Source: Sulfolobales archaeon (GTDB taxonomy: Archaea; Thermoproteota; Thermoprotei_A; Sulfolobales; AG1). From it: a DNA stretch of 64,000 bases. The translations under genes were made by a program, and so were the position numbers. Below, one piece after another: positions 29,032 through 55,208 of the stretch; positions within the stretch are counted from its first letter, which is position 1, and each line of letters opens with the position of its first letter. Below the pieces are notes generated by a model. That model had not been told where the DNA came from, did not search any database, and was given only the letters and a program-made list of their open reading frames with translations. Where the stretch lies: positions 32,001 to 96,000 of the forward strand of contig JAWBYA010000003.1 of the NCBI GenBank assembly GCA_038867615.1, written 5' to 3'.

Positions 29032-29709
29032 ATGTATAGATGCTCCTACTGTGGTTCCACAGATATCGTATATGATCTCAGTCGGGGTTATACTGTATGC
29101 ACTAACTGCGGCTCTGTTAACGATATTATATATAATAGTGATTCAGAGCTGTATAGCAGGATAAGCTATCCAGAAGAACCTAGCGCTATATATAGACGTC
29201 CCCATAGCAATAAGCATTGGCACCAGGAAGAAGTAGCAAGGCTTAATGGTATGGGTAAGGCTTACAAAATATATAGAGGTTTGGTTAGTAAGAAGAGGCT
29301 TAAGAAGGGGGTTTTCGTATCTAGCGAAGCCTTACAAGCTCTCATGGCTGGGCGTAAGCCCCCCAGGATCTTCGATCATATCAACAACAAAGTGGTGAAC
29401 GAATTTCTCGAACAAAGCCCTGTGTTAAAGAAGGTGATCGATATAATGAAGGAATACCCTAGCATATATTCGAGAACAACCAGAGGCAAGGCTGCTGCCG
29501 CATATATCGCGGCTAAGATGGCTATAAGGGATCCTGTATCGCTGAGTACTGTTTCCAGGTTCTTTAACATTAGCATGGTTCATCTAAGGAGGATAAAGAG
29601 ATCTTTGGAGACGTCAAAAGATCTTCTCAGTAAAATCAGCTACATAGAGGATCTATCACGGGAGATCGCGGAGGCTGATATGTTTATAAAAAAGCATCTC
29701 GGCTCGTGA
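29032..29709 (+). CDS. Truncated TFIIB paralog (TFB3-like)
   Basis: CSYCGSTDIVYDLSRGYTVCTNCG zinc ribbon; far shorter than a full two-cyclin TFB. Confidence 0.75.
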   Translation: MYRCSYCGSTDIVYDLSRGYTVCTNCGSVNDIIYNSDSELYSRISYPEEPSAIYRRPHSNKHWHQEEVARLNGMGKAYKIYRGLVSKKRLKKGVFVSSEALQALMAGRKPPRIFDHINNKVVNEFLEQSPVLKKVIDIMKEYPSIYSRTTRGKAAAAYIAAKMAIRDPVSLSTVSRFFNISMVHLRRIKRSLETSKDLLSKISYIEDLSREIAEADMFIKKHLGS

Positions 29710-29718
29710 GGGATCTTT

Positions 29719-31230
29719 TTGCTGCTATTTAGGAAAAGGAATAGGTCACAGGATAGGGCGAGATATGACAATGTATTTGAGATCAATATTGGTGGTAGAT
29801 CTCTCTATGCCTCTGGGTTTGAGATACTCGTAAAGGTTACTGGCAAGAAGGATAGGAGCTCTGCTAGAGATTCTGTGAGGACTGCTATCGAGAATATGAT
29901 ATATATATTGAGGGAGAGGATGCCTAGATCATCACAGATCTATGTTGTGACAAGGATAACAAAATACCTGGGAGGAACTGTGGTGATCTGTATTGATAAG
30001 AAGATAGATGTTGGACAGATCTGCAGGCTCGCATCATCAACAATCGAGGCTCTCTCGGACAGATCTGTAAAGATCAGGGAGCTTTCTGAGAAAGAGATTC
30101 TCGAGAGCCTTGTAATCCATAGAAAGTATGGTGGTAGCTTCCTGGATATGAATGCCTTTTTCGCAGAAGAGGCATCGCCATATGTAGATGAGCTGCCAGT
30201 CCCCATGATACCCCAAACCAGCGAGGGGATCTTGATAGGCGAGACCATAAGATCCAAGATAAGGCAGAAGATCTATCTACCCCTAGATACGCTTACAAGA
30301 CACATAGCGATATTCGGCTCCACAGGCTCTGGAAAATCCACCACTGCAGCAGCTATTGCTGTAAGATCTAGGGCTAAGGGTGTGAAGGTGATCATACTTG
30401 ACTGGCATGGCGAATATAGGGATCTTGTTGGCAGATCAGCTGAGCATAGATATATTAGGATAAACATGCCCATAGTCTCAACAATGCTTAGCGAGTTTAT
30501 ATCCAAACCCACATATATTCTCGAGATATTGGAGAGCGTCCTCGACCTTACCCCTGCTCAGAGCTATCTTCTATCAACAGTCCTGAGATCTCTTGGAAAT
30601 ACTAGTGGAACCAATATTTTCACAAAAATAGCCAGTCTATTGGAAGACTATAAGGGTGATGCTCGGTGGGTTTCCGAGACCAGATTCTCCCTTATGAGGA
30701 AGATCCAGCTGTTAGCCGATGAGGAGGCGAGAGCACCTATTAATAACGATGCGCTGAGCCATATACTCTCGCCAGGCCTATCCATAATAGATCTTTCTGA
30801 GATGGAGCGAGAATCACTGAAATCACTATCATCGCTAGTCATATTGAAAGTAACAGAGCTACTGTCTAAAAATAATAAGGAGTTCATGGCCACCAAAAAG
30901 CTTGTGATAGTTGATGAGGCACACCACGTGTTCAGAAGAACCGAAGGTGGATCTGTCATAGGAGATATGTTGGCAGAGACCAGAAAGTGGAACCTAGGGT
31001 TGGTGATAGTATCGCAGTCACCAAGCAGCCTTGGCGAGAACTCTCTCAAGAATACTAATACCAAGATAATCCATGCCATAAAATCCGATATAGATAGGAA
31101 AGTAATAAAGGACTCGATAGTAATTCCCAACGATATAGAGGGTATGCTACCAGCACTAGGTGTTGGCGAGGCTGTTATAGCTTCCCCGGCATATGATCTT
31201 GCAGTCCTTGCAAAGATCTACCCGCCTTAG
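29719..31230 (+). CDS. HerA/VirB4-like ATPase (DUF87)
   Basis: RHIAIFGSTGSGKS, ILDWHGEY, VIVDEAHH, ETRKW, VSQSP. Confidence 0.9.
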   Translation: MLLFRKRNRSQDRARYDNVFEINIGGRSLYASGFEILVKVTGKKDRSSARDSVRTAIENMIYILRERMPRSSQIYVVTRITKYLGGTVVICIDKKIDVGQICRLASSTIEALSDRSVKIRELSEKEILESLVIHRKYGGSFLDMNAFFAEEASPYVDELPVPMIPQTSEGILIGETIRSKIRQKIYLPLDTLTRHIAIFGSTGSGKSTTAAAIAVRSRAKGVKVIILDWHGEYRDLVGRSAEHRYIRINMPIVSTMLSEFISKPTYILEILESVLDLTPAQSYLLSTVLRSLGNTSGTNIFTKIASLLEDYKGDARWVSETRFSLMRKIQLLADEEARAPINNDALSHILSPGLSIIDLSEMERESLKSLSSLVILKVTELLSKNNKEFMATKKLVIVDEAHHVFRRTEGGSVIGDMLAETRKWNLGLVIVSQSPSSLGENSLKNTNTKIIHAIKSDIDRKVIKDSIVIPNDIEGMLPALGVGEAVIASPAYDLAVLAKIYPP

Positions 31231-43384: not shown

Positions 43385-43433
43385 AAACAAGACACTCTAA
43401 TTAACACTATGCGCTATATTGTCGTGTGGGAAG

Positions 43434-44159
43434 ATGGTCACACGAATATCTACAGGAGTGCATAGCCTAGACTCAATGCTTGAGGGAGGAGTGCCTGAGG
43501 GGTTCTTCATAGCAATAGTCGGAGAGCCCGGTACTGGTAAGACCGTGCTTAGCCTCCACTTCATCCACCAAGGCATAGTTGATGGTGATAAGTGTATCTA
43601 TGTAACGACAGAGGAGGATCGAGAATCCCTTCTAGACCAGGTAGAGAGATTCGGCTGGGACTGGGAACCTTTTATTGGTAAGAGGTTAATAATAATTGAT
43701 GCTCTAAAGGGCCAGGAGGATCCATGGTCTATCCAGGATATGGATATAGAGCTGCTAATAAACAAGGTGATCGAGGCTAAGAAAGCCCTTGGATATGGGA
43801 GGTCAAGGCTAGTCATAGACTCTATCTCAGCCTTCTGGCTCGAAAAACCAGCAATGGCTAGGAAATACAGCTATCTGGTCAAAAGAGTTCTGGGTAAATG
43901 GGGTTTCACAACATACCTAGTGTCACAATACGCTGTTACAACAATGTTCGCTTTTGGATGGGGTGTAGAGCATATAGCCGATGGTGTTATCAGGTTTAGG
44001 AGGAAGATCTCTGGAGGGGTGTTAAAGAGATACCTAATGATAGAGAAAATGAGGAACACAAGACATGATAAGAGAATATATGAAATAGACATAACTGATA
44101 GGGGGTTGGTGATACTAAACCCAGCTGACCTTGATATAGAGCATGTGACATCTATATAG
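43434..44159 (+). CDS. KaiC-domain RecA-superfamily ATPase
   Basis: GEPGTGKT, VTTEE, LVIDS, EHIADG, IEKMR. Confidence 0.92.
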   Translation: MVTRISTGVHSLDSMLEGGVPEGFFIAIVGEPGTGKTVLSLHFIHQGIVDGDKCIYVTTEEDRESLLDQVERFGWDWEPFIGKRLIIIDALKGQEDPWSIQDMDIELLINKVIEAKKALGYGRSRLVIDSISAFWLEKPAMARKYSYLVKRVLGKWGFTTYLVSQYAVTTMFAFGWGVEHIADGVIRFRRKISGGVLKRYLMIEKMRNTRHDKRIYEIDITDRGLVILNPADLDIEHVTSI

Positions 44160-44481
44160 ATAAGAAAGGATTCGTGTATCAAGAATCACAACCAAAGATC
44201 TTGTAAAAACAGCTCAAGCCGACCCCATATTAGATGAGAGATCCGTGTCGCCAAGCCCTGACAACAATCCACGGACCATGGGGATAAAGATCTCTGCGAG
44301 CTGGGTAGAAGATCTAGCTATGGAAAAACAACACAACAAATATCCAGAGACATATAGGTGAAGCAAGCGAAGATATGATCGCTGTGAAAACCCCTGAAGA
44401 GAACCAATCCACCCAACTACTCCTGCGTTCTTAAGCAGATAAAGCGTAATGCTAAATATACCTCTCCACAATATCTCAATA

Positions 44482-45231
44482 ATGATGAGCCTCTTGGCAA
44501 AAATCATTGTTGACGAGCGTGAGAGATCCTCAGGGATACCGCAATTACTGGCTAGGTTAGGTGACCATATAGTATACAAGATCCTTGATGTTGGTGACTA
44601 TATAGTTGGTGAGAGCATCGCGATCGAGAGGAAAAGAGTACCGGATTTTATAAGGAGTATTTTTGATGGAAGAATATTTGACCAGGTTGGAAGACTCCTT
44701 GATGTATATGATAAGGTAGTATTGCTTGTCCAAGGATCGCCAGGCGAGGTGAAAATGACCACAGATAGGTGGAGTTCTTTTTATGGAACAATAGCCAGAA
44801 TGATCCTTGAGGATGGTGTGAGCATCGTCTATACACATGACATCGAAGACACAGCCTACCTAATCCACTCCCTAGCCCAGAAATCCCAAAGCCCTGGAAT
44901 TGGGGGTGGACGCCCATTGATCCATAAGAAGCCGAAGCTGGGAACCGTGGATGAGTGGCAAGTATACATAGTCCAGAGCTTACCCTATATAGGGCCGAAG
45001 CTGGCTAGAAAGTTGCTAGAGAGATTCGGAAGCGTACTCTCTGTCTTCAACGCAAGCGCCCTAGAACTCAGCAGGGTCGAAGGGATCTCAGAGTGGAAGG
45101 CACAGGAGATAGTAAGGATCCTGAGATCGCCATATAATAAGGGTTTGTTTAGGAGTAAAGAGAGGGATCTTGGTTCAGAGCCTCATGGATCAGACAACAT
45201 ATCGCCAGATCATGGTAACGCTAACCACTAG
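44482..45231 (+). CDS. xpf: Crenarchaeal XPF/ERCC4 endonuclease
   Basis: VDERE, GDY...IERK...DF..SIFDGR, C-terminal HhH2. Confidence 0.93.
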   Translation: MMSLLAKIIVDERERSSGIPQLLARLGDHIVYKILDVGDYIVGESIAIERKRVPDFIRSIFDGRIFDQVGRLLDVYDKVVLLVQGSPGEVKMTTDRWSSFYGTIARMILEDGVSIVYTHDIEDTAYLIHSLAQKSQSPGIGGGRPLIHKKPKLGTVDEWQVYIVQSLPYIGPKLARKLLERFGSVLSVFNASALELSRVEGISEWKAQEIVRILRSPYNKGLFRSKERDLGSEPHGSDNISPDHGNANH

Positions 45232-45530: not shown

Positions 45531-46733
45531 TTATCTAGCAACTATAGCTAACACCCATATTAATGCTATTCTTACAAAGGCTATCCACTGTATAGGGCTT
45601 TCTCTGAACCATGGCCCCCTGCTCTCAACACCGATCATACTTGTTATAACTCCTTCATGGAACCAGAGAACCATTATCATGACATTAAGTATATCCTGGA
45701 TAAGCAACAGATATTTCAACCTATTGTTAAGCAATAGATAGAGAGGTGCCAGAAATATATTCATCTGTGGTGAGTAGATATATGAGAAACTTATAGAGAG
45801 TGCAACCGACATTAGTGGTGTGCGCATAGACATCGCTCCGGGTTCTTGGATATACCTGTTATAAGACACGATCGTATATATAAATGGTGCAGAGAGAGTG
45901 AGAACGATAGAGAGGGTCCTGAGACTCTGATTATATATATCATCTGTTAAGAGATTATAGAAGCAGTTTTCACAATACCACCTCGAGTGATAGCTAAGGA
46001 AGTGGAAGAAACCGGGGGGATATACGAGTAGTAATGCTAAGAACGGGAGTGCTGCTACTGAGAAGCCGAGAAGAGCGAAGAGCATGGCTCTCCCGATCCT
46101 GCTGGCTAGGATCGTGATGAATATAGAGAACAACGCATATATGGGTATAACCTTAACAGACGCTCCCAAACCCAACGCGATGGATGAGCCATAAATCTTG
46201 TTTTTAGTGTAGAGAAAAATACCCAAGATCATTAGAAAGGCCGCGATTATATCCCAGTTATAAAATAAATAGTAAACAATAGAGGGCGATGCTATAGAGA
46301 GTATAGAAAGAATCCTTGGCGTCCTCTTCTCTTTCGAGATCCTATATATGATATAGACATATGCTATATAGAAAAAAATATTTATAGCAAAAAGACTTCT
46401 CACCATGGATAAGAAAGGATCATAACCATGTGTTGAGAGATAAAGAGCGATCTTAGAGGCAGCTAGCCAGAGAACAGCTATTATTGGCGTGTATTCAAAC
46501 TCATAGTCAACATATGGATAGCCTGATAAGACGCTGTCAGGGGATCTATGATACAGCGCTAGGTAGTCAGTATATTCTCCAAGGAATAAGGGATCGTGGA
46601 TCACAATACCAATGAGTATAACTATTATCGCTATCATCGCGTACTGGTAGTGTTCACCACGAACTCTGCGCAAGATACCCCCACACAACATAGTCACAGA
46701 AAATATCTCTATGAGGCAAAAAACATATATCAT
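45531..46733 (-). CDS. Polytopic GT-C (GT87/DUF2029-like) glycosyltransferase
   Basis: PYVDYEFEYTP, NWDII, GASVKVIP, YSPQ; many TM helices. Confidence 0.75.
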   Translation of the reverse strand: MIYVFCLIEIFSVTMLCGGILRRVRGEHYQYAMIAIIVILIGIVIHDPLFLGEYTDYLALYHRSPDSVLSGYPYVDYEFEYTPIIAVLWLAASKIALYLSTHGYDPFLSMVRSLFAINIFFYIAYVYIIYRISKEKRTPRILSILSIASPSIVYYLFYNWDIIAAFLMILGIFLYTKNKIYGSSIALGLGASVKVIPIYALFSIFITILASRIGRAMLFALLGFSVAALPFLALLLVYPPGFFHFLSYHSRWYCENCFYNLLTDDIYNQSLRTLSIVLTLSAPFIYTIVSYNRYIQEPGAMSMRTPLMSVALSISFSYIYSPQMNIFLAPLYLLLNNRLKYLLLIQDILNVMIMVLWFHEGVITSMIGVESRGPWFRESPIQWIAFVRIALIWVLAIVAR

Positions 46734-46906: not shown

Positions 46907-46937
46907 ATTTTCGCCCAACCCAGTGGGCTTTTATATA
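46907..46937 (+). promoter_or_regulatory. Pilus operon promoter: ATTTTCGCCCAACCC element plus TTTTATATA box
   Basis: TATA box ~25-30 nt before the pilin ATG; ANTTTC-type motif just upstream of it. Confidence 0.5.
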
Positions 46938-46960: not shown

Positions 46961-47407
46961 ATGTTGAGGAAAAGAGTATTGAAAGGTTTGAGCGAGCTGG
47001 TGGTTATAATGATAGCGGTCGCCATAGCCGTACCAGTCATGTTCATACTACAATCATGGCTGGTAGGACAGATGGGGAGGATGCCAGAGCTAGATCCCGT
47101 GACAGCTACCTATGTCTCTAGAAGCGTTACCACAGACTCGCTCCTAGTAACACTAACCGTGAGCAATAATGGGAACGAGCCTGTGAGCGTTTCTAGCATT
47201 ACAGTGGTATACACCACTACCGAGAGTGGTGTAAGTACTACTTCAGGCAATCTGCTGGGTATAAGTCTTCCTCAGACTATTAATCCCAGATCATCGATAA
47301 CTATCCCTCTAACAATAAACAACGCGGCTAAGGTTAACGAGGTTATAGTCACAGTTACAATACCGAGCTCTAACATTGTGAAGACTATAAGAGCAGCAGG
47401 GATCTAG
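46961..47407 (+). CDS. Archaeal type IV pilin
   Basis: Class III signal peptide RKRVLKG/LSELVVIMIAVAIAV followed by a beta-rich domain. Confidence 0.88.
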   Translation: MLRKRVLKGLSELVVIMIAVAIAVPVMFILQSWLVGQMGRMPELDPVTATYVSRSVTTDSLLVTLTVSNNGNEPVSVSSITVVYTTTESGVSTTSGNLLGISLPQTINPRSSITIPLTINNAAKVNEVIVTVTIPSSNIVKTIRAAGI

Positions 47408-47410
47408 CGG

Positions 47411-48889
47411 GTGTTCCTCGTGCATTTACTGAAACTAGATAAGCTTTTTTCTAGAAAAATAATATTTGGCAGAGTTAATACGGGTTCTGTGTATTTTCCT
47501 AGCTATGGGGATTTTGATCTTAAGGAGTATGTGTTGCACGGAGATTCTAATGATTATGATCCATTGCTGAGCAACGCTGTGGTCAAAGAGGTGGAGGATG
47601 TTATTATAGAATATAGTGTTGGGCCGTACAGGATTCTGATTGTATCCTCTGATGGGGAGTATCTATATCTAGCGGATCTGGTTCCAAGGCCTTCCAGGGA
47701 TCTTGTGGGCATTATAGATAACCTATCAAGAGATCTTTTCAGATTCGCTCCTGAGGATAGGGATCTTGATGACTACTACATAGCCGAGGTTCTGAGGAAT
47801 GTGTACAGAATCCCTGAGGATTATGTTAATATGGCTACATATCTAGTGAAGGAGAGGCTTAAGTACGGCAGGATCCAGGTTCTCCTCGACGATCCATATA
47901 TAGAGGATATAAGCATCAGCGGCCCGGGTGCTGTTTGGGTTAGGCACAGGATAGTTGTTGAGAAGGATCCCTTGGTGGATATGATCAGAACAAACATCGT
48001 CCTAGATGCTAGGGAAGTGCTATCGCTTCAAAAATACATAGCCACAAGATCTAGAACATATATATCTAGGTCAAACCCTGTAGTCGATGTACAGCTCCCA
48101 AGAGAGGACGGTGGGCACAGGGTACATCTAGTAGATCCAACAATAGCTGGTAACAGACCAGAGATAACTATTAGAAAGAGGTTGGAGGAGAAGATAAGCA
48201 TAGAGTGGCTCATTGAGAAAGGATCTATTAGGAGCGAGGTTGCCGAGTATCTAAGACAGATAGTACTAAGCAGGGGCTCTATAGTTATAGCCGGCCCCCC
48301 GTCTAGTGGAAAGACAACCCTCCTAAGAGCTCTTCTCAACAGCTACGTACCCCCCAGCTGGAAAGTAGTTATAATAGAAGATACCCCCGAGATCGAGATC
48401 CCCGAGAACAGCTCGTGGGTTAGATATACAACATACGAACTGGGAGCGCTCCACATAGACCAGTTCTTCCTAGCCAAAGCAGCCCTCAGATCTTCTGCTA
48501 ACAGGCTCATAGTGATCGGAGAAACCAGGGGAGCAGAAGCCCAGGTTCTGGCACAAGCCCTAAACATGGGTATGGGGGCTCTCACAACATTCCACGGCGG
48601 GTCTTCAGAGGAGGTTATAACAAGGCTTATGTCGCCTCCTATAAACATGTCTAAACACCAGATCGGCAGCATATGGACTATAGTTATCATGGGTATTGGG
48701 TGTGTGAACAGTAAGGGGGTGGGTAGGTGTGTGGAGAGGGTGGATGAGATCCTTATGGATGACGATATAGATATACATACAGTCTATTCTGTGGAGGAGA
48801 ACAGCCCAGGGATTATGGAGAGAAGCATTAGATTGAGGAGAGCCAGCAGGACAAGGAATTCTGGGAACATCTTGGTCAAAACCGGCTAG
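47411..48889 (+). CDS. Type IV pilus assembly ATPase (VirB11/ArlI family)
   Basis: DDPYIEDIS, GPPSSGKTT, IEDTPEI, IGETRG, TTFH. Confidence 0.93.
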   Translation: MFLVHLLKLDKLFSRKIIFGRVNTGSVYFPSYGDFDLKEYVLHGDSNDYDPLLSNAVVKEVEDVIIEYSVGPYRILIVSSDGEYLYLADLVPRPSRDLVGIIDNLSRDLFRFAPEDRDLDDYYIAEVLRNVYRIPEDYVNMATYLVKERLKYGRIQVLLDDPYIEDISISGPGAVWVRHRIVVEKDPLVDMIRTNIVLDAREVLSLQKYIATRSRTYISRSNPVVDVQLPREDGGHRVHLVDPTIAGNRPEITIRKRLEEKISIEWLIEKGSIRSEVAEYLRQIVLSRGSIVIAGPPSSGKTTLLRALLNSYVPPSWKVVIIEDTPEIEIPENSSWVRYTTYELGALHIDQFFLAKAALRSSANRLIVIGETRGAEAQVLAQALNMGMGALTTFHGGSSEEVITRLMSPPINMSKHQIGSIWTIVIMGIGCVNSKGVGRCVERVDEILMDDDIDIHTVYSVEENSPGIMERSIRLRRASRTRNSGNILVKTG

Positions 48890-48903
48890 GGTTCGGTACC
48901 ACC

Positions 48904-50358
48904 ATGGATATCCTCTCACGAGCTGTAAGGAAATACTCAGAACTATTAGCGATCTCGGTATCGAGCTACAGGGATTATCTATCTCTACAGAGAGAGCTGA
49001 TAACAGCCATTATAGGTGTAATGCTCTCCCTATCACTCGCAACGATCACCAACCTCTGGTTAGGAGCCATACCGCATAACATGGAATTATCGATAGCACT
49101 CGCAATTTCGGGGTCTATTTTATCACTCCACAAGATCCTAGCCAGGGTCTCGAGATCCTTGGAGAAGGCAAAAGGATTATCAGAGGAGCTACCATATTTG
49201 GTTTTCATGGCCTCAGCAATAGCTAGGACAGGGCTCGAGCTTGTAGAAGCGCTTCATTTTATCTCAACCAGCGAGGCTGGTGTGTTTAGATATTTTAAAA
49301 GCCTCTCAAAAAGGCTTATCAATGCATCCAAATACATAGGCTTTGAGGAGGCCTTAGACAGGCTCGCAGGGATTCCTAGGGGTGTTAAGAAGACTCTGAT
49401 AACATATCTCTCAAGCATAAGTTTAGGAACAGGTATAGAGACACTGAACGCGCTTGGGTTAGAGATGATCAGAGAGGCTTCTAGACGGGCATCGAGATCT
49501 ATAGACCTAGCAGCCCAGGCTGGCCTGGTGATAACGATGGTACTCACAACAATACCGATCCTCGTCCTAGGGATCTCATCGATCCTCGGCGATCATGTAG
49601 CGCTAAGCGTAGGCATCATGGTTAGTTTAGGCACACCAGTAGCTGTTCTATTACTGCCCCAAACACCCCTACCACTCAGGCTCATAATAAGTAGGGGTAA
49701 GACGCTGTATGTTTCTTTACTAAGCCTGCTCTCCATAGGCCTTATAGTATTGGCATATGTATCAATACACCTGCTAGCCTTATCAATCATCCAGATAAAT
49801 ATAATGAAGAACATTATTATCATATTATCGATCATCATGATCCTCGTGGGTATCCCCTGGGCGGTGATCTTTGCAAACTACCTAGCCGGTTTCGGGAGGG
49901 CTAGGGATATCTTGTTTTCTATAAGCAGTTATGCCAAGGCATATAGAACACTAGATGGTCTCGACCTAGATAAGGAGGCACAGAGAGTAGGTTCATACGC
50001 ACCATGGATATTACATTATATCATATTCTCTCTGGTCTTTTTCAGAGAAAAGGGTGGGGTCGAGCCCATAGTCATCACAAGGTTTTCAGAAGAGATCATG
50101 GATGTAATGGCAAAGAACACCAACAGGATCGCGGGATCTTTGCTATCGCTTGCAGCAACCCTAGCACAGCCAGTAATGCTTGCACAGATAATCCCAATGA
50201 TGGGCTCAACCGCACATAGCCTTGGCACGATCGTCATGCTCCTATCATCAGCAACGGTATCATCGCTAATAGCATCAAAGATCTTCTTCGGAAGTGCGAG
50301 GAACACGATTATAATGGGTATGTGTTTCTTGCTACTCTATACACTTCTCCTAAGGTGA
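48904..50358 (+). CDS. Pilus membrane platform protein (TadC/ArlJ-like)
   Basis: Multi-TM protein, EELPY...TGLE..EAL pattern, directly after the ATPase. Confidence 0.8.
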   Translation: MDILSRAVRKYSELLAISVSSYRDYLSLQRELITAIIGVMLSLSLATITNLWLGAIPHNMELSIALAISGSILSLHKILARVSRSLEKAKGLSEELPYLVFMASAIARTGLELVEALHFISTSEAGVFRYFKSLSKRLINASKYIGFEEALDRLAGIPRGVKKTLITYLSSISLGTGIETLNALGLEMIREASRRASRSIDLAAQAGLVITMVLTTIPILVLGISSILGDHVALSVGIMVSLGTPVAVLLLPQTPLPLRLIISRGKTLYVSLLSLLSIGLIVLAYVSIHLLALSIIQINIMKNIIIILSIIMILVGIPWAVIFANYLAGFGRARDILFSISSYAKAYRTLDGLDLDKEAQRVGSYAPWILHYIIFSLVFFREKGGVEPIVITRFSEEIMDVMAKNTNRIAGSLLSLAATLAQPVMLAQIIPMMGSTAHSLGTIVMLLSSATVSSLIASKIFFGSARNTIIMGMCFLLLYTLLLR

Positions 50359-50363
50359 TCCTC

Positions 50364-52754
50364 ATGAGCCTTTCAATAAAGATCCCATACAAGGTTGAGG
50401 ATCTATTCACGGTAGAATTGCCAGAGCATCTGCTAAGTCTGAAACCGCGTCTCATTCAATCAAGGATCAGCCCTGACACTGTCTATGTTGAAACAGAGAT
50501 CGGGGACGTGCTTGTGAGACCATTGATAGGTTTGAAAAACAATATCAACAGACCCTGGGTGTATCACGATGCCTCGAGGGTTTGTTTTAATAATGCGTGT
50601 AAAGATCTTGGCAAGATCTTTAAAGCAGCTCCACTAAGCGATAACACTGCTATAGTAATTAACGAGGGGAAAAGCTACTTAGCAGAGTTATCTGAAGACG
50701 GTATAAGAACCAGACATGTTGATGTAAAAGAGATCTTAGGATCAGTACGATACATAGATAGATCTGTTATTCTGATTCGAGAGAAAGGGTTTAGGAAGAG
50801 AGTGTTAGCAATAGACCACGGGTTTCTATATGCCGTGACAAGCTTCTGCATGGAGCGAAGAGAAGGATATGCTGTAGTAGCCTTCGAGACGGGTGGTTAT
50901 ACAAGAATATACTTTGGCGCCGAGCACGGCGGGTATATGATATACGACACAAACAGCCCGCCAGTAGCATGTACCATGGGGTATAGGGTAGCTACTATAG
51001 CGCTAAGGAACCGGGGTTCTGTATATATCGGTAAGGGACTATACCTAGAAACACCCCTAAGATCCGTAGGAACAGCGTGGATCCCTGAGGATAGGGTTCT
51101 TATTCTATACGATCAGAAGGGTGGGTGGCTATTAGAGAGCGATCTTAGAAGCCTCAAACCCATAGCCAGGCTGCCTGGCAGACCAACATATTTGGGCAGG
51201 CTTGGGGATTCAGATTCACATGTATTGACGGTTAACGGAGAGTTGGTGGTTATCAAAGGCTCCCTCATTACAAAGCCGGAGATCCGTTTAGACAGTTATA
51301 AATATGTGTCCATCAATAACAATGGGTTAGTGATAGATTCAGGAGAAACCCTCGCAATAAGATCCATAGAGGGGAGGGAGATCTGGAGTGTTAAGAAAGA
51401 TCCAGATACTCTATGCAGTGGATATGGAGACAAAATTGTATGTATTAAGGGGAACATGATCAGCGTAATAGAACCCGGTGAGGGAGAAGTGGTGATAGAG
51501 AGAAGAGCCGGTGAAATACCGGGGGTTATCATAAGCGGGGGTGGAAAAATACCAGGTATATCGGTCAGCGGGGATATAGATGTAATCAACATAACAAGAG
51601 TAGATGGAGACATAGAGATAACCATGGCGCCCAGGGTGCTTGGAAAAACATCGAGACCGTATATAGAGTTGGAGGACCTCATAACAAAGCACAGGGCTGA
51701 ATTGGAGGTCGTGGCGGAACCCCCGAAAGTAACTATAGAGCATGCTGGGATAGTGGTTTCGAGAACAGGTTTGCATATCGAGTGCGGCTCTCCCGGATAT
51801 GCCGAGGTTGTGTTAAGACTTAGCGGGAATAGATTCCACGATTTATATAGATATGTTGTGAGGATAACATCGATGGGAAGAGTTATAGGGCTAACAACAT
51901 TCCATCTAGGCTCTAACAATAGAGCTGAGGAGAAGATAGAACTGAGGATATGCCTAGAAGAGGCACCGATCGATGGAGATGCATGGCTAGAGATAACAGC
52001 TATAAAGAGAGATCTTGAGGGTCTCGAGGGCGAAGCTTTCTACAGAGCACCCTTGGTAGTTGAAACCAAGGAGCCTGTTGTCACCATATCTCTAGAGCAC
52101 TATAGCGATAAAAGCGAGATAACAGTAAAGGTAGAGAGATCCCGCGGGGTTGATGGAAACATATATGTTGATATTAAATGCACCAACACGTCATTCGAAA
52201 AAACAGAGAGAGGCAGTGGGGTTGTTAGGATCACCATAGGGGGGTGTGAGGTTCCAGCAAGAATCGTTACAGCTATCGAGGATCAAGGTTTCAAATGGAT
52301 CACTTCTAGAGAGATCCATATACCAGAACTAGTGCAATGCGCGGAGGAATATAACGATATAGCCGGTATAGCCGACGTGATGTGTACCAAGGGTGGGTTT
52401 TACAAACATATACCCCCGATCTCCCATAAAGATCTCTCACCCATAAAGGAGATAAAGGTTATAAATCTCCCAGGCAGAGGGAGCCAGGTCTTAATTATTG
52501 CTGATAGGAATGCATCATATATGGTAACAACCCTGAGAACCGGCTATGTGATTGGACAAGGCCGGCTATTCACCGGGATTAACATAGTGAACCTGGGGGT
52601 TGCAGCCCTGCTAGAGCCCTTAAGACTGTCGATCTTCAGTGGGGCGGCTTATAGAGAATATTTGATAGAGCCGGAAAACATAGCTGAGATGATCTCAACA
52701 GCCCTGAGAACATCTTATAAGCTACTAGAAATTATGGGCGGGCTAGGATTATAG
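50364..52754 (+). CDS. Large (~800 aa) beta-rich protein of unknown function
   Basis: Long ORF inside the pilus operon; no obvious signal peptide or TM segment. Confidence 0.8.
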   Translation: MSLSIKIPYKVEDLFTVELPEHLLSLKPRLIQSRISPDTVYVETEIGDVLVRPLIGLKNNINRPWVYHDASRVCFNNACKDLGKIFKAAPLSDNTAIVINEGKSYLAELSEDGIRTRHVDVKEILGSVRYIDRSVILIREKGFRKRVLAIDHGFLYAVTSFCMERREGYAVVAFETGGYTRIYFGAEHGGYMIYDTNSPPVACTMGYRVATIALRNRGSVYIGKGLYLETPLRSVGTAWIPEDRVLILYDQKGGWLLESDLRSLKPIARLPGRPTYLGRLGDSDSHVLTVNGELVVIKGSLITKPEIRLDSYKYVSINNNGLVIDSGETLAIRSIEGREIWSVKKDPDTLCSGYGDKIVCIKGNMISVIEPGEGEVVIERRAGEIPGVIISGGGKIPGISVSGDIDVINITRVDGDIEITMAPRVLGKTSRPYIELEDLITKHRAELEVVAEPPKVTIEHAGIVVSRTGLHIECGSPGYAEVVLRLSGNRFHDLYRYVVRITSMGRVIGLTTFHLGSNNRAEEKIELRICLEEAPIDGDAWLEITAIKRDLEGLEGEAFYRAPLVVETKEPVVTISLEHYSDKSEITVKVERSRGVDGNIYVDIKCTNTSFEKTERGSGVVRITIGGCEVPARIVTAIEDQGFKWITSREIHIPELVQCAEEYNDIAGIADVMCTKGGFYKHIPPISHKDLSPIKEIKVINLPGRGSQVLIIADRNASYMVTTLRTGYVIGQGRLFTGINIVNLGVAALLEPLRLSIFSGAAYREYLIEPENIAEMISTALRTSYKLLEIMGGLGL

Positions 52755-53341
52755 ATATAAAGAGGCTTCTCAGGATACGGGAACATGTTGCCAAAATACT
52801 GTTTGGATCAGATGATCTCAGGCTAGTCGATGGAAGAATTGTTAGCTGTGATAGTAAGGGTTGCATTGCAAGAGGGTTCCTCATAGTTAGGGATTTTACA
52901 GAAACACTGGACGATCTAGAGGGTAAGGATGTACAGAGAATACTTAACTCATACGTTAAAACCCTATCTCACAACGCACCAATAGATCTGAGGATTATTA
53001 TCTCACCGATCAAGCCAGAGGAGGTGATGAGCAAAATAGACAAGGCTATACAGGTTAAACAAATCATGCTCGAAGCAGACCCAACCAACGAGAAGCTGAG
53101 AACCGAGGTTGAGAGACTGAAGAGAATTAAGAAAAAGATACTCAGCGGAGAGACCCCCTTCTCGATAAACATGGTCTTCAGCGTTATCTCACAAGGATCT
53201 ACGGAGAATGAAGCCATAGAAAGGCTCTCACATAAGATCTCGATATTAAGGGAGGAGTTGAGAAGTATAGGAATATATACCGAGGATCTTAGAGGACTTG
53301 GGGCAATAGCCGCTCTTAATAGGTTTTTTCGTGGGGAGTAA
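52751..53341 (+). CDS. ~196-aa protein resembling a VirB4 N-terminal region (probable ATA start)
   Basis: Frame is open from 52721 with no ATG/GTG/TTG until 53024; ATAG overlap with the upstream stop; coiled coil then ENEAIERL...LRSIGI. Confidence 0.7.
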   Translation: MDIKRLLRIREHVAKILFGSDDLRLVDGRIVSCDSKGCIARGFLIVRDFTETLDDLEGKDVQRILNSYVKTLSHNAPIDLRIIISPIKPEEVMSKIDKAIQVKQIMLEADPTNEKLRTEVERLKRIKKKILSGETPFSINMVFSVISQGSTENEAIERLSHKISILREELRSIGIYTEDLRGLGAIAALNRFFRGE

Positions 53342-54506
53342 TAGCCCCATACTGAGGATCCTCGATAGGATTCTTTGGAACAAACTCACAATAACCTCAT
53401 CGCAGGCCATATATCTCTCTCCATTTATAAAAACCAGTCTGCATTCTAGGGGTAGAAGTGCTAGCGGGATACCGCTTGGAAGAGTCATAAACAGTGGTAG
53501 GAATATCTTCTGGAACCCGAACATCTCAATGAGCCCCCACGTGGTTGTGGTTGGACCAACAGGGTCTGGGAAAACAGAGACGCTCCTGAGCATAGCTACC
53601 AAGATGAACTCGCTCTACTCACTCACCGTGCTGATGATCGATGTTAAGGGAGATATTAGAAGTAGGCTGGAGAGGAGGGGCTATTTCTTCAATCTCATAG
53701 ATGTACCTAGAGATCCTCTGGGATCTTTATATCCATACTATATAGACACTGTTGGCAGGGCTGGACAGGTATTTGAATCCATAGTCTCCTCCTACGAGGT
53801 ACATGACGTCAGGATTCAAGCCTCTCTCTATAAGGCTATAAAGAAAGCATATGAAACAACACCACTCCCAACATGGCAGCATATTATGGCAGGGCTTGCT
53901 GACGAAGAAAACCCCGAGAGCATAATGATCTCAAGGATGTTGGATGAGATAGCGTTTCTCGACGGTGGACCGCATAATATAGGGCACTACTCACTCAGAG
54001 AAGGTATTATTAATGTGATCTCCCTAGCCGGGATCTCGAAGGAGAGGGAAGAGATGCTAAGCTACGCGATGAACATGGTGTTCCACGATATGTTGAACTA
54101 CATGTCTTCAAGAAGCATAGACCCAAAGACCATAAGGGGGGTTCTCGTAATAGATGAGGCATGGGTGCTGAGCAAACATGGGAAGAGCTCTAACAGAGTG
54201 CTAAACTTGATAAAGCTCAGCAGAGGCTATGGTCTCTCAGTCCTTCTAGCCACCCAGAGTTTCAGGGATTTTGGTGATAGCTGGGATAGGATTCTAGAAA
54301 ACACTGGAGTCCTCATAGTGCTTAATACTCCGAGCAAGAGATTCTGGATCGATGCATCCAATTTCCTGAAAATAAGCAGAGAAGCCATAGAAGATCTCAT
54401 GGTCGTACTTGGTAAAGGAGACGCGCTCATAAGAGTCCTCCCGGATCCAAGGCCTATCCCAGTATCCCTCGAAAACGATGTTGAGGAAGCAAGAGAAGGG
54501 TTCTAA
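53331..54506 (+). CDS. VirB4/HerA-like ATPase
   Basis: GIPLGR, PHVVVVGPTGSGKT, IDVKGD, LVIDEAW, SRGYG, LATQ. Confidence 0.9.
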   Translation: MGSNSPILRILDRILWNKLTITSSQAIYLSPFIKTSLHSRGRSASGIPLGRVINSGRNIFWNPNISMSPHVVVVGPTGSGKTETLLSIATKMNSLYSLTVLMIDVKGDIRSRLERRGYFFNLIDVPRDPLGSLYPYYIDTVGRAGQVFESIVSSYEVHDVRIQASLYKAIKKAYETTPLPTWQHIMAGLADEENPESIMISRMLDEIAFLDGGPHNIGHYSLREGIINVISLAGISKEREEMLSYAMNMVFHDMLNYMSSRSIDPKTIRGVLVIDEAWVLSKHGKSSNRVLNLIKLSRGYGLSVLLATQSFRDFGDSWDRILENTGVLIVLNTPSKRFWIDASNFLKISREAIEDLMVVLGKGDALIRVLPDPRPIPVSLENDVEEAREGF

Positions 54507-54728: not shown

Positions 54729-55208
54729 TTATAGCTCTTTGAAGAAGACGTATAGCAGGGGTTTAAAGCCCAGGCTTGTATAGAACTCAACAGCTATTTT
54801 GTTCATAGGGGGAAACTCGGCCGATATGAGTGTCACTCCCCTGGACTTAAGGATCTTTGTTAGTGATGATATTAACGCTTCACCCACGCCCTTTCTCCTA
54901 TAGCTTGGAAGCACATATAGATCTGTTATCACGCCTGCTATGAGGGGTTCGTAGAAGATTCTAGATCTGATCTCAGTCCTTATGACGCCCACCACCCTTC
55001 CCGAAGACTCAGCTACAAGGGTTATCACATCCTCCCTGCCTAGTGAATCGCTTATATATTTCCTCACAACCTCCGGCGCCTCTTGCCTCACAGTATATAG
55101 TGGGTCGAACTCCTCGTTGAGCTTTTTAAGTCTTAGAACCAGGTCTGATATTTGTTCCACATCCTCTTTCCTAGCAATCCTTATTATATATTCACTCTCT
55201 CCAGCCAT
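54729..55208 (-). CDS. GNAT acetyltransferase
   Basis: LYVLPSYRRKGVG, N..A..FY..LGF. Confidence 0.9.
   Translation of the reverse strand: MAGESEYIIRIARKEDVEQISDLVLRLKKLNEEFDPLYTVRQEAPEVVRKYISDSLGREDVITLVAESSGRVVGVIRTEIRSRIFYEPLIAGVITDLYVLPSYRRKGVGEALISSLTKILKSRGVTLISAEFPPMNKIAVEFYTSLGFKPLLYVFFKEL

Follow-up and report, generated by a model that had tools for sequence, protein, structure and literature searches.

Sulfolobus depends on two systems for the DNA exchange that follows damage, the Ups pili and the Ced importer, which have been described as separately encoded (PMC9905601, PMC11823120, PMC11868833). Ups has further been described as exclusive to the Sulfolobales (PMC13705601, PMC11823120). 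We report here on a row of six genes that unites relatives of the two systems, located at positions 46961–54506 (+) of a 64,000-nucleotide stretch of archaeal DNA (the window; G000:C3:32001-96000). The source genome comprises 2.2 Mb in 28 contigs, and the sequencing runs that contain the window stretch are hot-spring metagenomes. Carriers of the row are members, other than Sulfolobaceae, of the GTDB order that also holds the Sulfolobaceae.

Several features of the described systems bear on this locus. UpsX was predicted to be cytoplasmic, without a recognisable domain, and was found in cytosol and membrane fractions, ∼35% of it shifting to the membrane after ultraviolet (UV) irradiation; it is not needed for pili or aggregation, and an upsX deletion mutant contributed about half the wild-type UV-induced rise in DNA transfer (PMC3892339). 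For ATPases of the HerA/FtsK superfamily with a VirB4-type N-terminal domain, a role in powering a VirB6-like channel together with a VirB2-like pilus has been proposed (PMC9905601). The VirB4 N-domain is reported to be divided, with different parts in CedB and in CedD (PMC11868833), and CedB of some organisms is without a transmembrane (TM) domain (PMC11823120).

Results

Gene Content of the Row

Our results indicate that the row is probably a conserved operon in which an Ups-like contact pilus is co-expressed with the Ced motor, with a homologue of UpsX as the likely link between them. The six same-strand genes follow one another at junctions of +3, +14, +5, −4, and −11 nt, which bears out the tight packing described in an earlier note on this sequence, and they are flanked by minus-strand genes at 45531–46733 and 54729–55208. 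The junction between the third and fourth genes is +5 nt when counted from the ATG at 50364 and becomes an overlap if the GTG at 50322 is used.

The last two genes encode a CedB-family ATPase in two parts. The product of the fifth gene (52751–53341 (+), 196 codons, likely with an ATA start) matched the NF041017 CedB model over positions 74–204 (E 5.5e-15, 55 bits), and the 391-aa product of the sixth (53331–54506 (+)) matched it over positions 224–588 (254 bits, E 3e-75). The latter product also matched HerA_C, AAA_10, and DUF87 in Pfam and contains GPTGSGKT and VLVIDEAW, which we take to be its Walker A and Walker B motifs; a P-loop ATPase domain of the HerA/VirB4 type is present. The profile match and the alignment together assign a predicted CedB-type N-terminal domain to the 196-aa product, which aligns with the N-terminal parts of unsplit CedB up to a conserved LNxFFR motif; the fission point falls directly after this motif. 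The earlier proposal that these genes are the N-terminal and ATPase halves of a VirB4-like motor was thus upheld by the model positions matched, and it is also backed by the single gene of 566–600 aa found in other families.

At 254 + 55 bits, the window CedB stays below the NF041017 equivalog cut-off of 700. Because the unsplit pilus-linked CedB of genome G016 (324 bits) and the cedA-linked CedB of genome G039 (217 bits) also score below 700, we judged that this cut-off excludes the non-Sulfolobaceae CedB proteins tested. The VirB4 models matched weakly (TIGR00929, 38.8 bits against a cut-off of 643.1). An N-terminal TM anchor was not found, positions 1–73 of the CedB profile being unmatched and the hydropathy count giving 0 TM segments in the relatives. 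In a CedB tree of 19 rows (quick IQ-TREE, rooted on the genome's own CedD), both the split and the unsplit forms of the row CedB fell into one clade (SH-aLRT 90) that was sister to Sulfolobaceae CedB (83), and the cedA-linked CedB proteins of G039 and G024 fell outside this grouping; support was moderate, and the G028 row formed a long branch of uncertain place. As judged from this tree, the ATPase of the row is CedB proper, closest to that of Sulfolobaceae. The G024 locus (L039 4829–10616) shows another arrangement, with four genes on one strand for a pilin-like protein of 125 aa, two further proteins of 608 and 532 aa, the latter with 6 TM segments, and a CedB of 571 aa with one TM segment.

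The first three genes encode pilus components. The first (46961–47407 (+), ATG; a longer TTG frame runs from 46901) encodes a predicted prepilin of 148 aa with the N terminus MLRKRVLKG/LSELVV, which we take to be a class III signal pattern, followed by a hydrophobic helix and a beta-rich domain. KG-LSEL and the hydrophobic N terminus are kept in 20/20 loci compared; the assignment as a putative prepilin rests on the charged N terminus, the G/L pair, and the hydrophobic helix retained throughout these loci. Two genes for A24 prepilin peptidases were found in the genome (PF01478 matches over the cut-off). The row holds one pilin gene only and does not show the UpsA/UpsB pilins.

The second gene (47411–48889 (+)) encodes a 492-aa type IV filament assembly ATPase of the FlaI/TadA type (PF00437 T2SSE, 74 bits against a cut-off of 24.9) with the Walker A sequence GPPSSGKT. 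Its best NCBIfam model was FlaI (E 3.9e-52), and BasE matched with E 2e-31. Pilus ATPases linked to CedB form a clade of their own, with support of 99/99 in a careful tree of 22 rows and of 100 in a quick tree of 35 rows. In two genomes, G180 and G224, the CedB-linked pilus ATPase is 834–837 aa long and contains an intein (L094 12223–14727; L100 12487–15000), called from the N-terminal splicing region TIGR01445 (29.2 bits, cut-off 24.5).

The third gene (48904–50358 (+)) encodes a polytopic protein of 484 aa. Pfam and NCBIfam scans gave no match for it, and PF00482 matched 0/18 family members. In a profile-profile comparison with hhalign, the family alignment (A1) matched an alignment of nine PF00482-positive platform proteins (A5) with a probability of 97.8% (E 1e-12), the match spanning the first T2SSF domain. 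The AF2 model (pLDDT 85.9) is all-helical; a fold search with it gave no PDB match at E ≤ 0.001, and a search of solved structures with A1 gave one chance-level match. On the profile match, the product is a divergent platform protein of the T2SSF/FlaJ/TadC type, and the TadC-like platform of the earlier note stands. A CedA/VirB6-like channel was also considered for this protein and rejected, hhalign against CedA of G039 giving a probability of 0.1%.

The UpsX Homologue

The fourth gene (50364–52754 (+)) encodes a protein of 796 aa, or of 810 aa from the GTG at 50322, in which neither a signal peptide nor a TM segment was seen and which family models did not match. Its family alignment (A2) matched a 12-sequence UpsX alignment (A3) in hhalign with a probability of 98.1% (E 1.2e-13) over 504 columns, which cover most of both the large protein and UpsX; against a single UpsX sequence the large-protein profile gave 91.6% (E 8.3e-7). 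Our own hidden Markov model of the large protein matched a 658-aa Sulfolobaceae protein encoded directly upstream of an ATPase (E 3.4e-9), and this protein, the first row of A3, scored 642 bits with the NCBIfam UpsX model (cut-off 550). By these profile comparisons the large protein, previously listed as unknown, is a remote relative of UpsX and not an equivalog. A protein-atlas search gave leads of 0.80–0.81 only, below the trusted level (DUF5711 in 13–15% of members). A complex prediction of the large protein with the CedB N-domain (A2 and A4; score 0.04, mark 0.32) is evidence neither way.

An exhaustive HMMER scan of 1.84 billion representative proteins returned only 24 relatives of the large protein at E ≤ 1e-3. 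Among genomes of the order, the family occurs in 66/301: it is present in 12/13 genomes of the window's own family (f1), 36/52 of f3, 1/1 of f4, 3/26 of f5, 9/53 of f10, 3/8 of f11, and 1/47 of the Sulfolobaceae (f13), the last being a weak match to a UpsX. Short relatives (572–695 aa, or fragments) without an adjacent CedB were seen at L083–L091, L096, L099, and L101. In the Sulfolobaceae genus g15 (G148 and G025), UpsX and a gene of the SSO5209 family lie 1.3–2.0 kb apart; T2SSE searches gave no ATPase beside UpsX there, which seems to have been kept without UpsE.

Conservation of the Row

The six-gene order cannot be put down to chance: of 10 f1 loci fetched, 9 retain it, and the tenth, L029, stops at a contig end inside the large gene. 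The order pilin, ATPase, platform, large protein, and unsplit CedB was found in G016 (f4) and in G027 and G015 (f3). Among 20 further loci selected by the presence of the large protein, 7 (L092, L093, L094, L095, L097, L098, and L100, all f3) have the row with an unsplit CedB, 12 have short or broken forms, and 1 is a true ups operon. The row is thus known from 20 genomes in three families (our own, 9 of f1, 3 of f3/f4, and 7 of f3). That pilus genes and motor belong to one row, as the earlier note held, is supported; the row is conserved and its genes overlap.

Throughout these rows the UpsX-like and CedB genes overlap or abut, and the identity of the platform and large proteins falls to 17–24% across the three families. 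In G017 and G028 (f5), the UpsX-like gene and a split CedB occur together with no pilus genes adjoining. In Sulfolobaceae, CedB is encoded alone and has TM segments; in G039 it follows cedA1-cedA-cedA2.

The pilin gene is preceded, in divergent orientation, by a small winged helix-turn-helix gene of the SSO5209 family (NF053658) at L031 and at 6/7 of the further f3 row loci; in G017 and G028 such a gene stands before the large gene. Of 29 Sulfolobaceae genomes with a gene of this family, 25 have it, by coordinates, beyond UpsX at a distance of up to 5 kb and on the opposite strand; in the other four it lies elsewhere (two), on another contig (one), or in a genome without a UpsX match (one).

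Ced Genes Elsewhere in the Genome

The remaining Ced genes are present in the window's genome. cedA1 and cedA lie at G000:C3:29464-31115, 2 kb before the window and ∼50 kb upstream of the row. CedA1 scored 123.9 bits, over its cut-off of 100, and the 454-aa CedA-like protein, in a 455-aa frame, scored 98.7 bits, below its cut-off of 330; CedB has its CedA/CedA1 partners in this genome. The channel gene reported as missing was only seemingly absent, an effect of the window edge, because cedA1 and cedA sit just outside it.

Within the window, 16 kb before the row, a gene for a CedD-like ATPase (29719–31230 (+)) scored 273 bits with NF053655 (E 1e-81), for which the cut-off is 600. Directly upstream of it is a tfb3-like gene (29032–29709 (+), 225 aa; PF08271, E 3.3e-9), whose product has a TFIIB zinc ribbon only, as expected of TFB3. 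In S. acidocaldarius, tfb3 presumably also lies beside cedD; CedD of that species is saci_0667 (PMC11823120). With an ATPase that is CedB, a large protein homologous to UpsX, and cedA1, cedA, and a cedD-like gene in the genome, the locus no longer fits the earlier description as neither ups nor ced. CedA1 was found in 258/301 genomes of the order and in 19/20 genomes with the row.

The Split of CedB

The 196-codon frame contains no ATG, GTG, or TTG before codon 92, and the first open reading frame (ORF) with a canonical start covers 53024–53341. At 52748–52760, the ATA start position overlaps the upstream TAG as ATAG; the same ATA within an ATAG overlap is shared by the window (G000) and the two relatives nearest to it, G003 and G002. 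Where the window has ATA, seven relatives carry ATG, TTG, or GTG (a comparison that includes L030 5990–6040). In G011, a TGA divides the large protein from the CedB N-domain, and a CTG stands two codons after it. dN/dS for the N-domain gene was 0.064 against G003 and 0.098 against G002, and the corresponding values for the ATPase-domain gene were 0.083 and 0.086. We took the full 196-codon frame as coding because it is under purifying selection. Translation of the N-domain gene probably starts by coupling to the upstream gene, and the ATA and CTG starts suggest non-canonical initiation by termination-reinitiation.

Searches with the 391-aa protein in 40 relatives gave E ≤ 1e-102 in 12/13 f1 genomes, with open frames of 385–405 aa and identity down to 44%; the thirteenth, G009 (63% complete), gave a weak match only. 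In other families the best ATPase matches fell in frames of 587–615 aa. ORF maps of f1, and of G017 and G028, show a separate N-domain gene of ∼190 aa preceding that for the ATPase; elsewhere CedB is a single gene of 566–600 aa. Contigs from two other studies span 52603–53500 with 0 differences, and variant strains showed substitutions and no indels over this interval. As judged from these comparisons, the split is an old and maintained gene fission and not the product of error or decay.

The Putative Promoter

A putative promoter precedes the pilin gene at 46907–46937 (+). It comprises an ATTTTC element (46907–46912) and a TATA-like box, TTTTATATA (46929–46937), 23 nt apart from start to start, with the box ∼25 nt upstream of the pilin ATG. 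An A(N)TTTC element, in the form AATAYTTTC, lies upstream of the row in 10/10 f1 loci, and the 23-nt spacing to the TATA-like box is kept in 9/10. The A(N)TTTC motif is required for UV induction of the Sulfolobus ups promoters (PMC5817253), and the hexamer core of the f1 element is identical to that of the Sulfolobus UV promoter. A genome-wide scan for the element with its TATA spacing gave 12 loose and 3 strict matches, none at ced genes; therefore, we claim no regulon. A scan for promoters and terminators of bacterial type, unsuited to archaea, found 14 promoters where 14.7 were expected, which is chance.

Flanking Genes

Upstream of the row lie genes for a KaiC-domain protein (43419–44159) and an XPF-type 3′-flap endonuclease (44449–45231). 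The gene at 45531–46733 encodes a divergent GT87-like membrane glycosyltransferase, and in five relatives the row adjoins a gene for a polytopic protein of similar size. An endonuclease and a glycosyltransferase are likewise reported from the surroundings of ups in Sulfolobales (PMC13705601). The SSO5209-family gene of the window's genome lies away from the row (G000:C2:208171-210278; L050 and L062), beside a PINA-type ATPase gene (650 bits), which encodes a Holliday-junction branch-migration ATPase.

Discussion

We propose that a single promoter ahead of the pilin gene would switch on a contact pilus and the CedB motor together, from co-transcribed genes and possibly in response to damage; the one pointer to such a response is the A(N)TTTC-type element conserved in f1. 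The contact pilus would draw cells together, as Ups pili do, and the CedB motor would energise DNA import mediated by CedA and CedA1, with the UpsX homologue working at the membrane together with CedB; the CedA1 pilin, the CedA channel, and the CedD-like ATPase would be supplied from elsewhere on the same contig. The outcome may be DNA exchange, as in Sulfolobus. The two CedB halves are probably translated by coupling. Because the pairing of UpsX-like and CedB genes persists without pilus genes in G017 and G028, the data suggest that UpsX-family proteins may work together with CedB; such a partnership would account for the effect of ΔupsX on DNA transfer. The pilus of the row is predicted to be of the Ups kind in function, with an ATPase lineage of its own.

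Several results weigh against this proposal. The similarity of the large protein to UpsX is remote, with an identity of ∼13%, and the NCBIfam UpsX model gave no match to the window protein at E ≤ 0.1. The pilin scored only 19 bits with the UpsA model NF046073 (E 1e-3; cut-off 130). The ATPase phylogeny set the pilus ATPase outside the UpsE clade: in the 35-row tree, the CedB-linked ATPases sat on a long stem outside a support-100 clade containing five UpsE sequences and other type IV ATPases of Sulfolobaceae and relatives. Because of this branching, the pilus core is taken as not orthologous to that of Ups, and its ATPase, as judged from the tree, is not an UpsE orthologue and represents its own lineage. 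In f1 the spacing between promoter element and TATA box exceeds that of the Sulfolobus UV promoter by ∼10 nt, or one helical turn, and the element was not seen in f3/f4 loci or upstream of the genome's own cedA1 or cedD. Short UpsX-like forms without an adjacent CedB account for 12/20 of the further loci, and some genera with short forms have no CedA1 match at all (g24, 0/10; g12, 0/4; also g13 and g20). Because of these short forms and genera, we conclude that the UpsX-like family is not bound to CedB everywhere and is older or broader than the CedB link.

A bolder form of the proposal is that Ups-type pili and the Ced importer began as one machine and here remain one, with UpsX as an adaptor docking the CedB hexamer onto the pilus platform and ATPase, cell contact gating import, and Sulfolobaceae later scattering the genes and swapping the pilus core. 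We regard this as possible and rather doubtful. If true, it would give UpsX a concrete role, and the machine would combine parts of a type IV pilus with parts of type IV secretion in one hybrid.

It could instead be that the genes are neighbours only: the pilus would be an ordinary adhesion pilus, CedB would work solely with CedA and CedA1, the large protein would be a pilus accessory, and the row would reflect co-regulation or drift. The distinctness of the ATPase clade from UpsE fits this explanation, as does the finding that 7 of the 12 short-form loci, lacking CedB, have an ATPase of the same clade and a platform gene ≤9 kb away. However, mere neighbourhood accords poorly with a row kept over three families, with overlapping reading frames, while its proteins diverged to 17–24% identity, or with UpsX-like and CedB genes that stay paired where the locus has no pilus genes. 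We therefore consider it unlikely and prefer an operon that joins a contact pilus to the Ced motor.

The earlier note had read the row as a self-contained pilus-coupled translocase without a CedA/VirB6-type channel; DNA would then pass through the type IV machinery itself, much as it does with the competence pseudopili of bacteria. The row itself has no channel gene, its CedB has no N-terminal TM segment, and one genome with the row, G001 (96% complete, 190 contigs), is the only one of the 20 to give no CedA1 match. These points are outweighed by cedA1 and cedA 50 kb upstream on the same contig, by CedA1 in the other 19 row genomes, and by the closeness of the row CedB to Sulfolobaceae CedB, which works with CedA, and a channel-free translocase appears improbable.

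Equally improbable is a role for the 796–810-aa protein outside the cell, as an adhesin or a minor component of the pilus comparable to PilY-like adhesins, and not as a cytoplasmic partner of CedB. Its AF2 model (pLDDT 88.5) is all-beta, with a propeller-like N-terminal half, Ig/FnIII-like sandwiches, and a C-terminal helix. A fold search against the PDB gave generic propeller and FnIII matches only (TM-scores ≤ 0.19), the best being extracellular receptors and WD-repeat proteins, and five cysteines are nearly invariant across the family. A PilY-like adhesin, arCOG03511, is described for archaeal subsystem 4A/B (PMC13705601), such adhesins being reported downstream of platform genes in 4A, and Desulfurococcales loci have 3–4 untraceable extra components (PMC4858521). 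On the other side, a hydropathy scan found no signal peptide or TM segment in most ORFs of the family, five of them (L022, L031, L087, L089, and L094) having one TM segment; the 504-column homology is to UpsX, a protein found in cytosol and membrane fractions (PMC3892339); and the gene is tightly coupled to cedB.

Finally, neither decay into a pseudogene nor a frameshift introduced by assembly at the T-run ahead of 53331 is a credible origin of the split, despite the six-T run just before the junction and the N-terminal part without a canonical start codon. Both can practically be dismissed, given that 12 f1 relatives, as well as G017 and G028, are split at the same domain border with junctions of differing sequence, and given dN/dS of 0.06–0.10 for both parts, identical independent contigs, and variant strains without indels.

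The back-to-back position of an UpsX homologue and CedB behind pilus genes in at least three families yields a testable hypothesis, that UpsX works with CedB. Relatives of UpsX are thereby placed beyond the Sulfolobaceae, in groups for which Ups is given as absent in recent surveys. The fission of CedB, conserved at the border between N-domain and ATPase, is a natural experiment on the build of VirB4-like motors and complements the sharing of VirB4 N-domain parts between CedB and CedD (PMC11868833). The terms cedb, virb4, and hera have 0 occurrences in PMC13705601, and the accessible text of this survey and of PMC4858521 is silent on CedB, VirB4, or HerA at loci of type IV filaments. Within the accessible literature, we found no report of a split CedB, of relatives of UpsX beyond the Sulfolobales, or of a linkage between pilus genes and CedB; the figures of the 2016 Ced paper or the survey supplements may already depict this linkage.

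Taken together, the row is a variant of known systems and not a new kind of machine. With bacterial VirB4 and conjugative type IV secretion systems, and with Ted of Thermoproteales, it has in common a HerA/FtsK-superfamily ATPase with a VirB4-type N-domain. However, its CedB matches VirB4 models weakly, it has no VirB6 or VirB2 gene, and the partners of the ATPase are those of a type IV pilus and not type IV secretion genes.

The relation to Ced (CedA, CedA1, CedA2, and CedB; later also CedD and CedE) is closer. The last two genes of the row encode a CedB-family ATPase, and the window's genome likewise has cedA1, cedA, and a cedD-like gene beside a tfb3-like gene. In contrast to described CedB, that of the row is split in two, lacks the N-terminal membrane segment, and scores below the NCBIfam equivalog cut-off. 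Whereas CedB stands on its own in Sulfolobaceae and beside cedA1-cedA-cedA2 in G039, here it is the last member of a type IV pilus row, directly after an UpsX homologue.

With Ups, the row shares the types of part (pilin, assembly ATPase, platform, and UpsX-family protein), an SSO5209-family neighbour common to both kinds of locus, and a promoter hexamer that resembles A(N)TTTC. The order, however, is pilin-E-F-X with one pilin, whereas that of Ups is X-E-F-A-B with two; the ATPase comes from another clade, the UpsX relative is ∼140 aa longer and remotely similar, and cedB is appended to the row.

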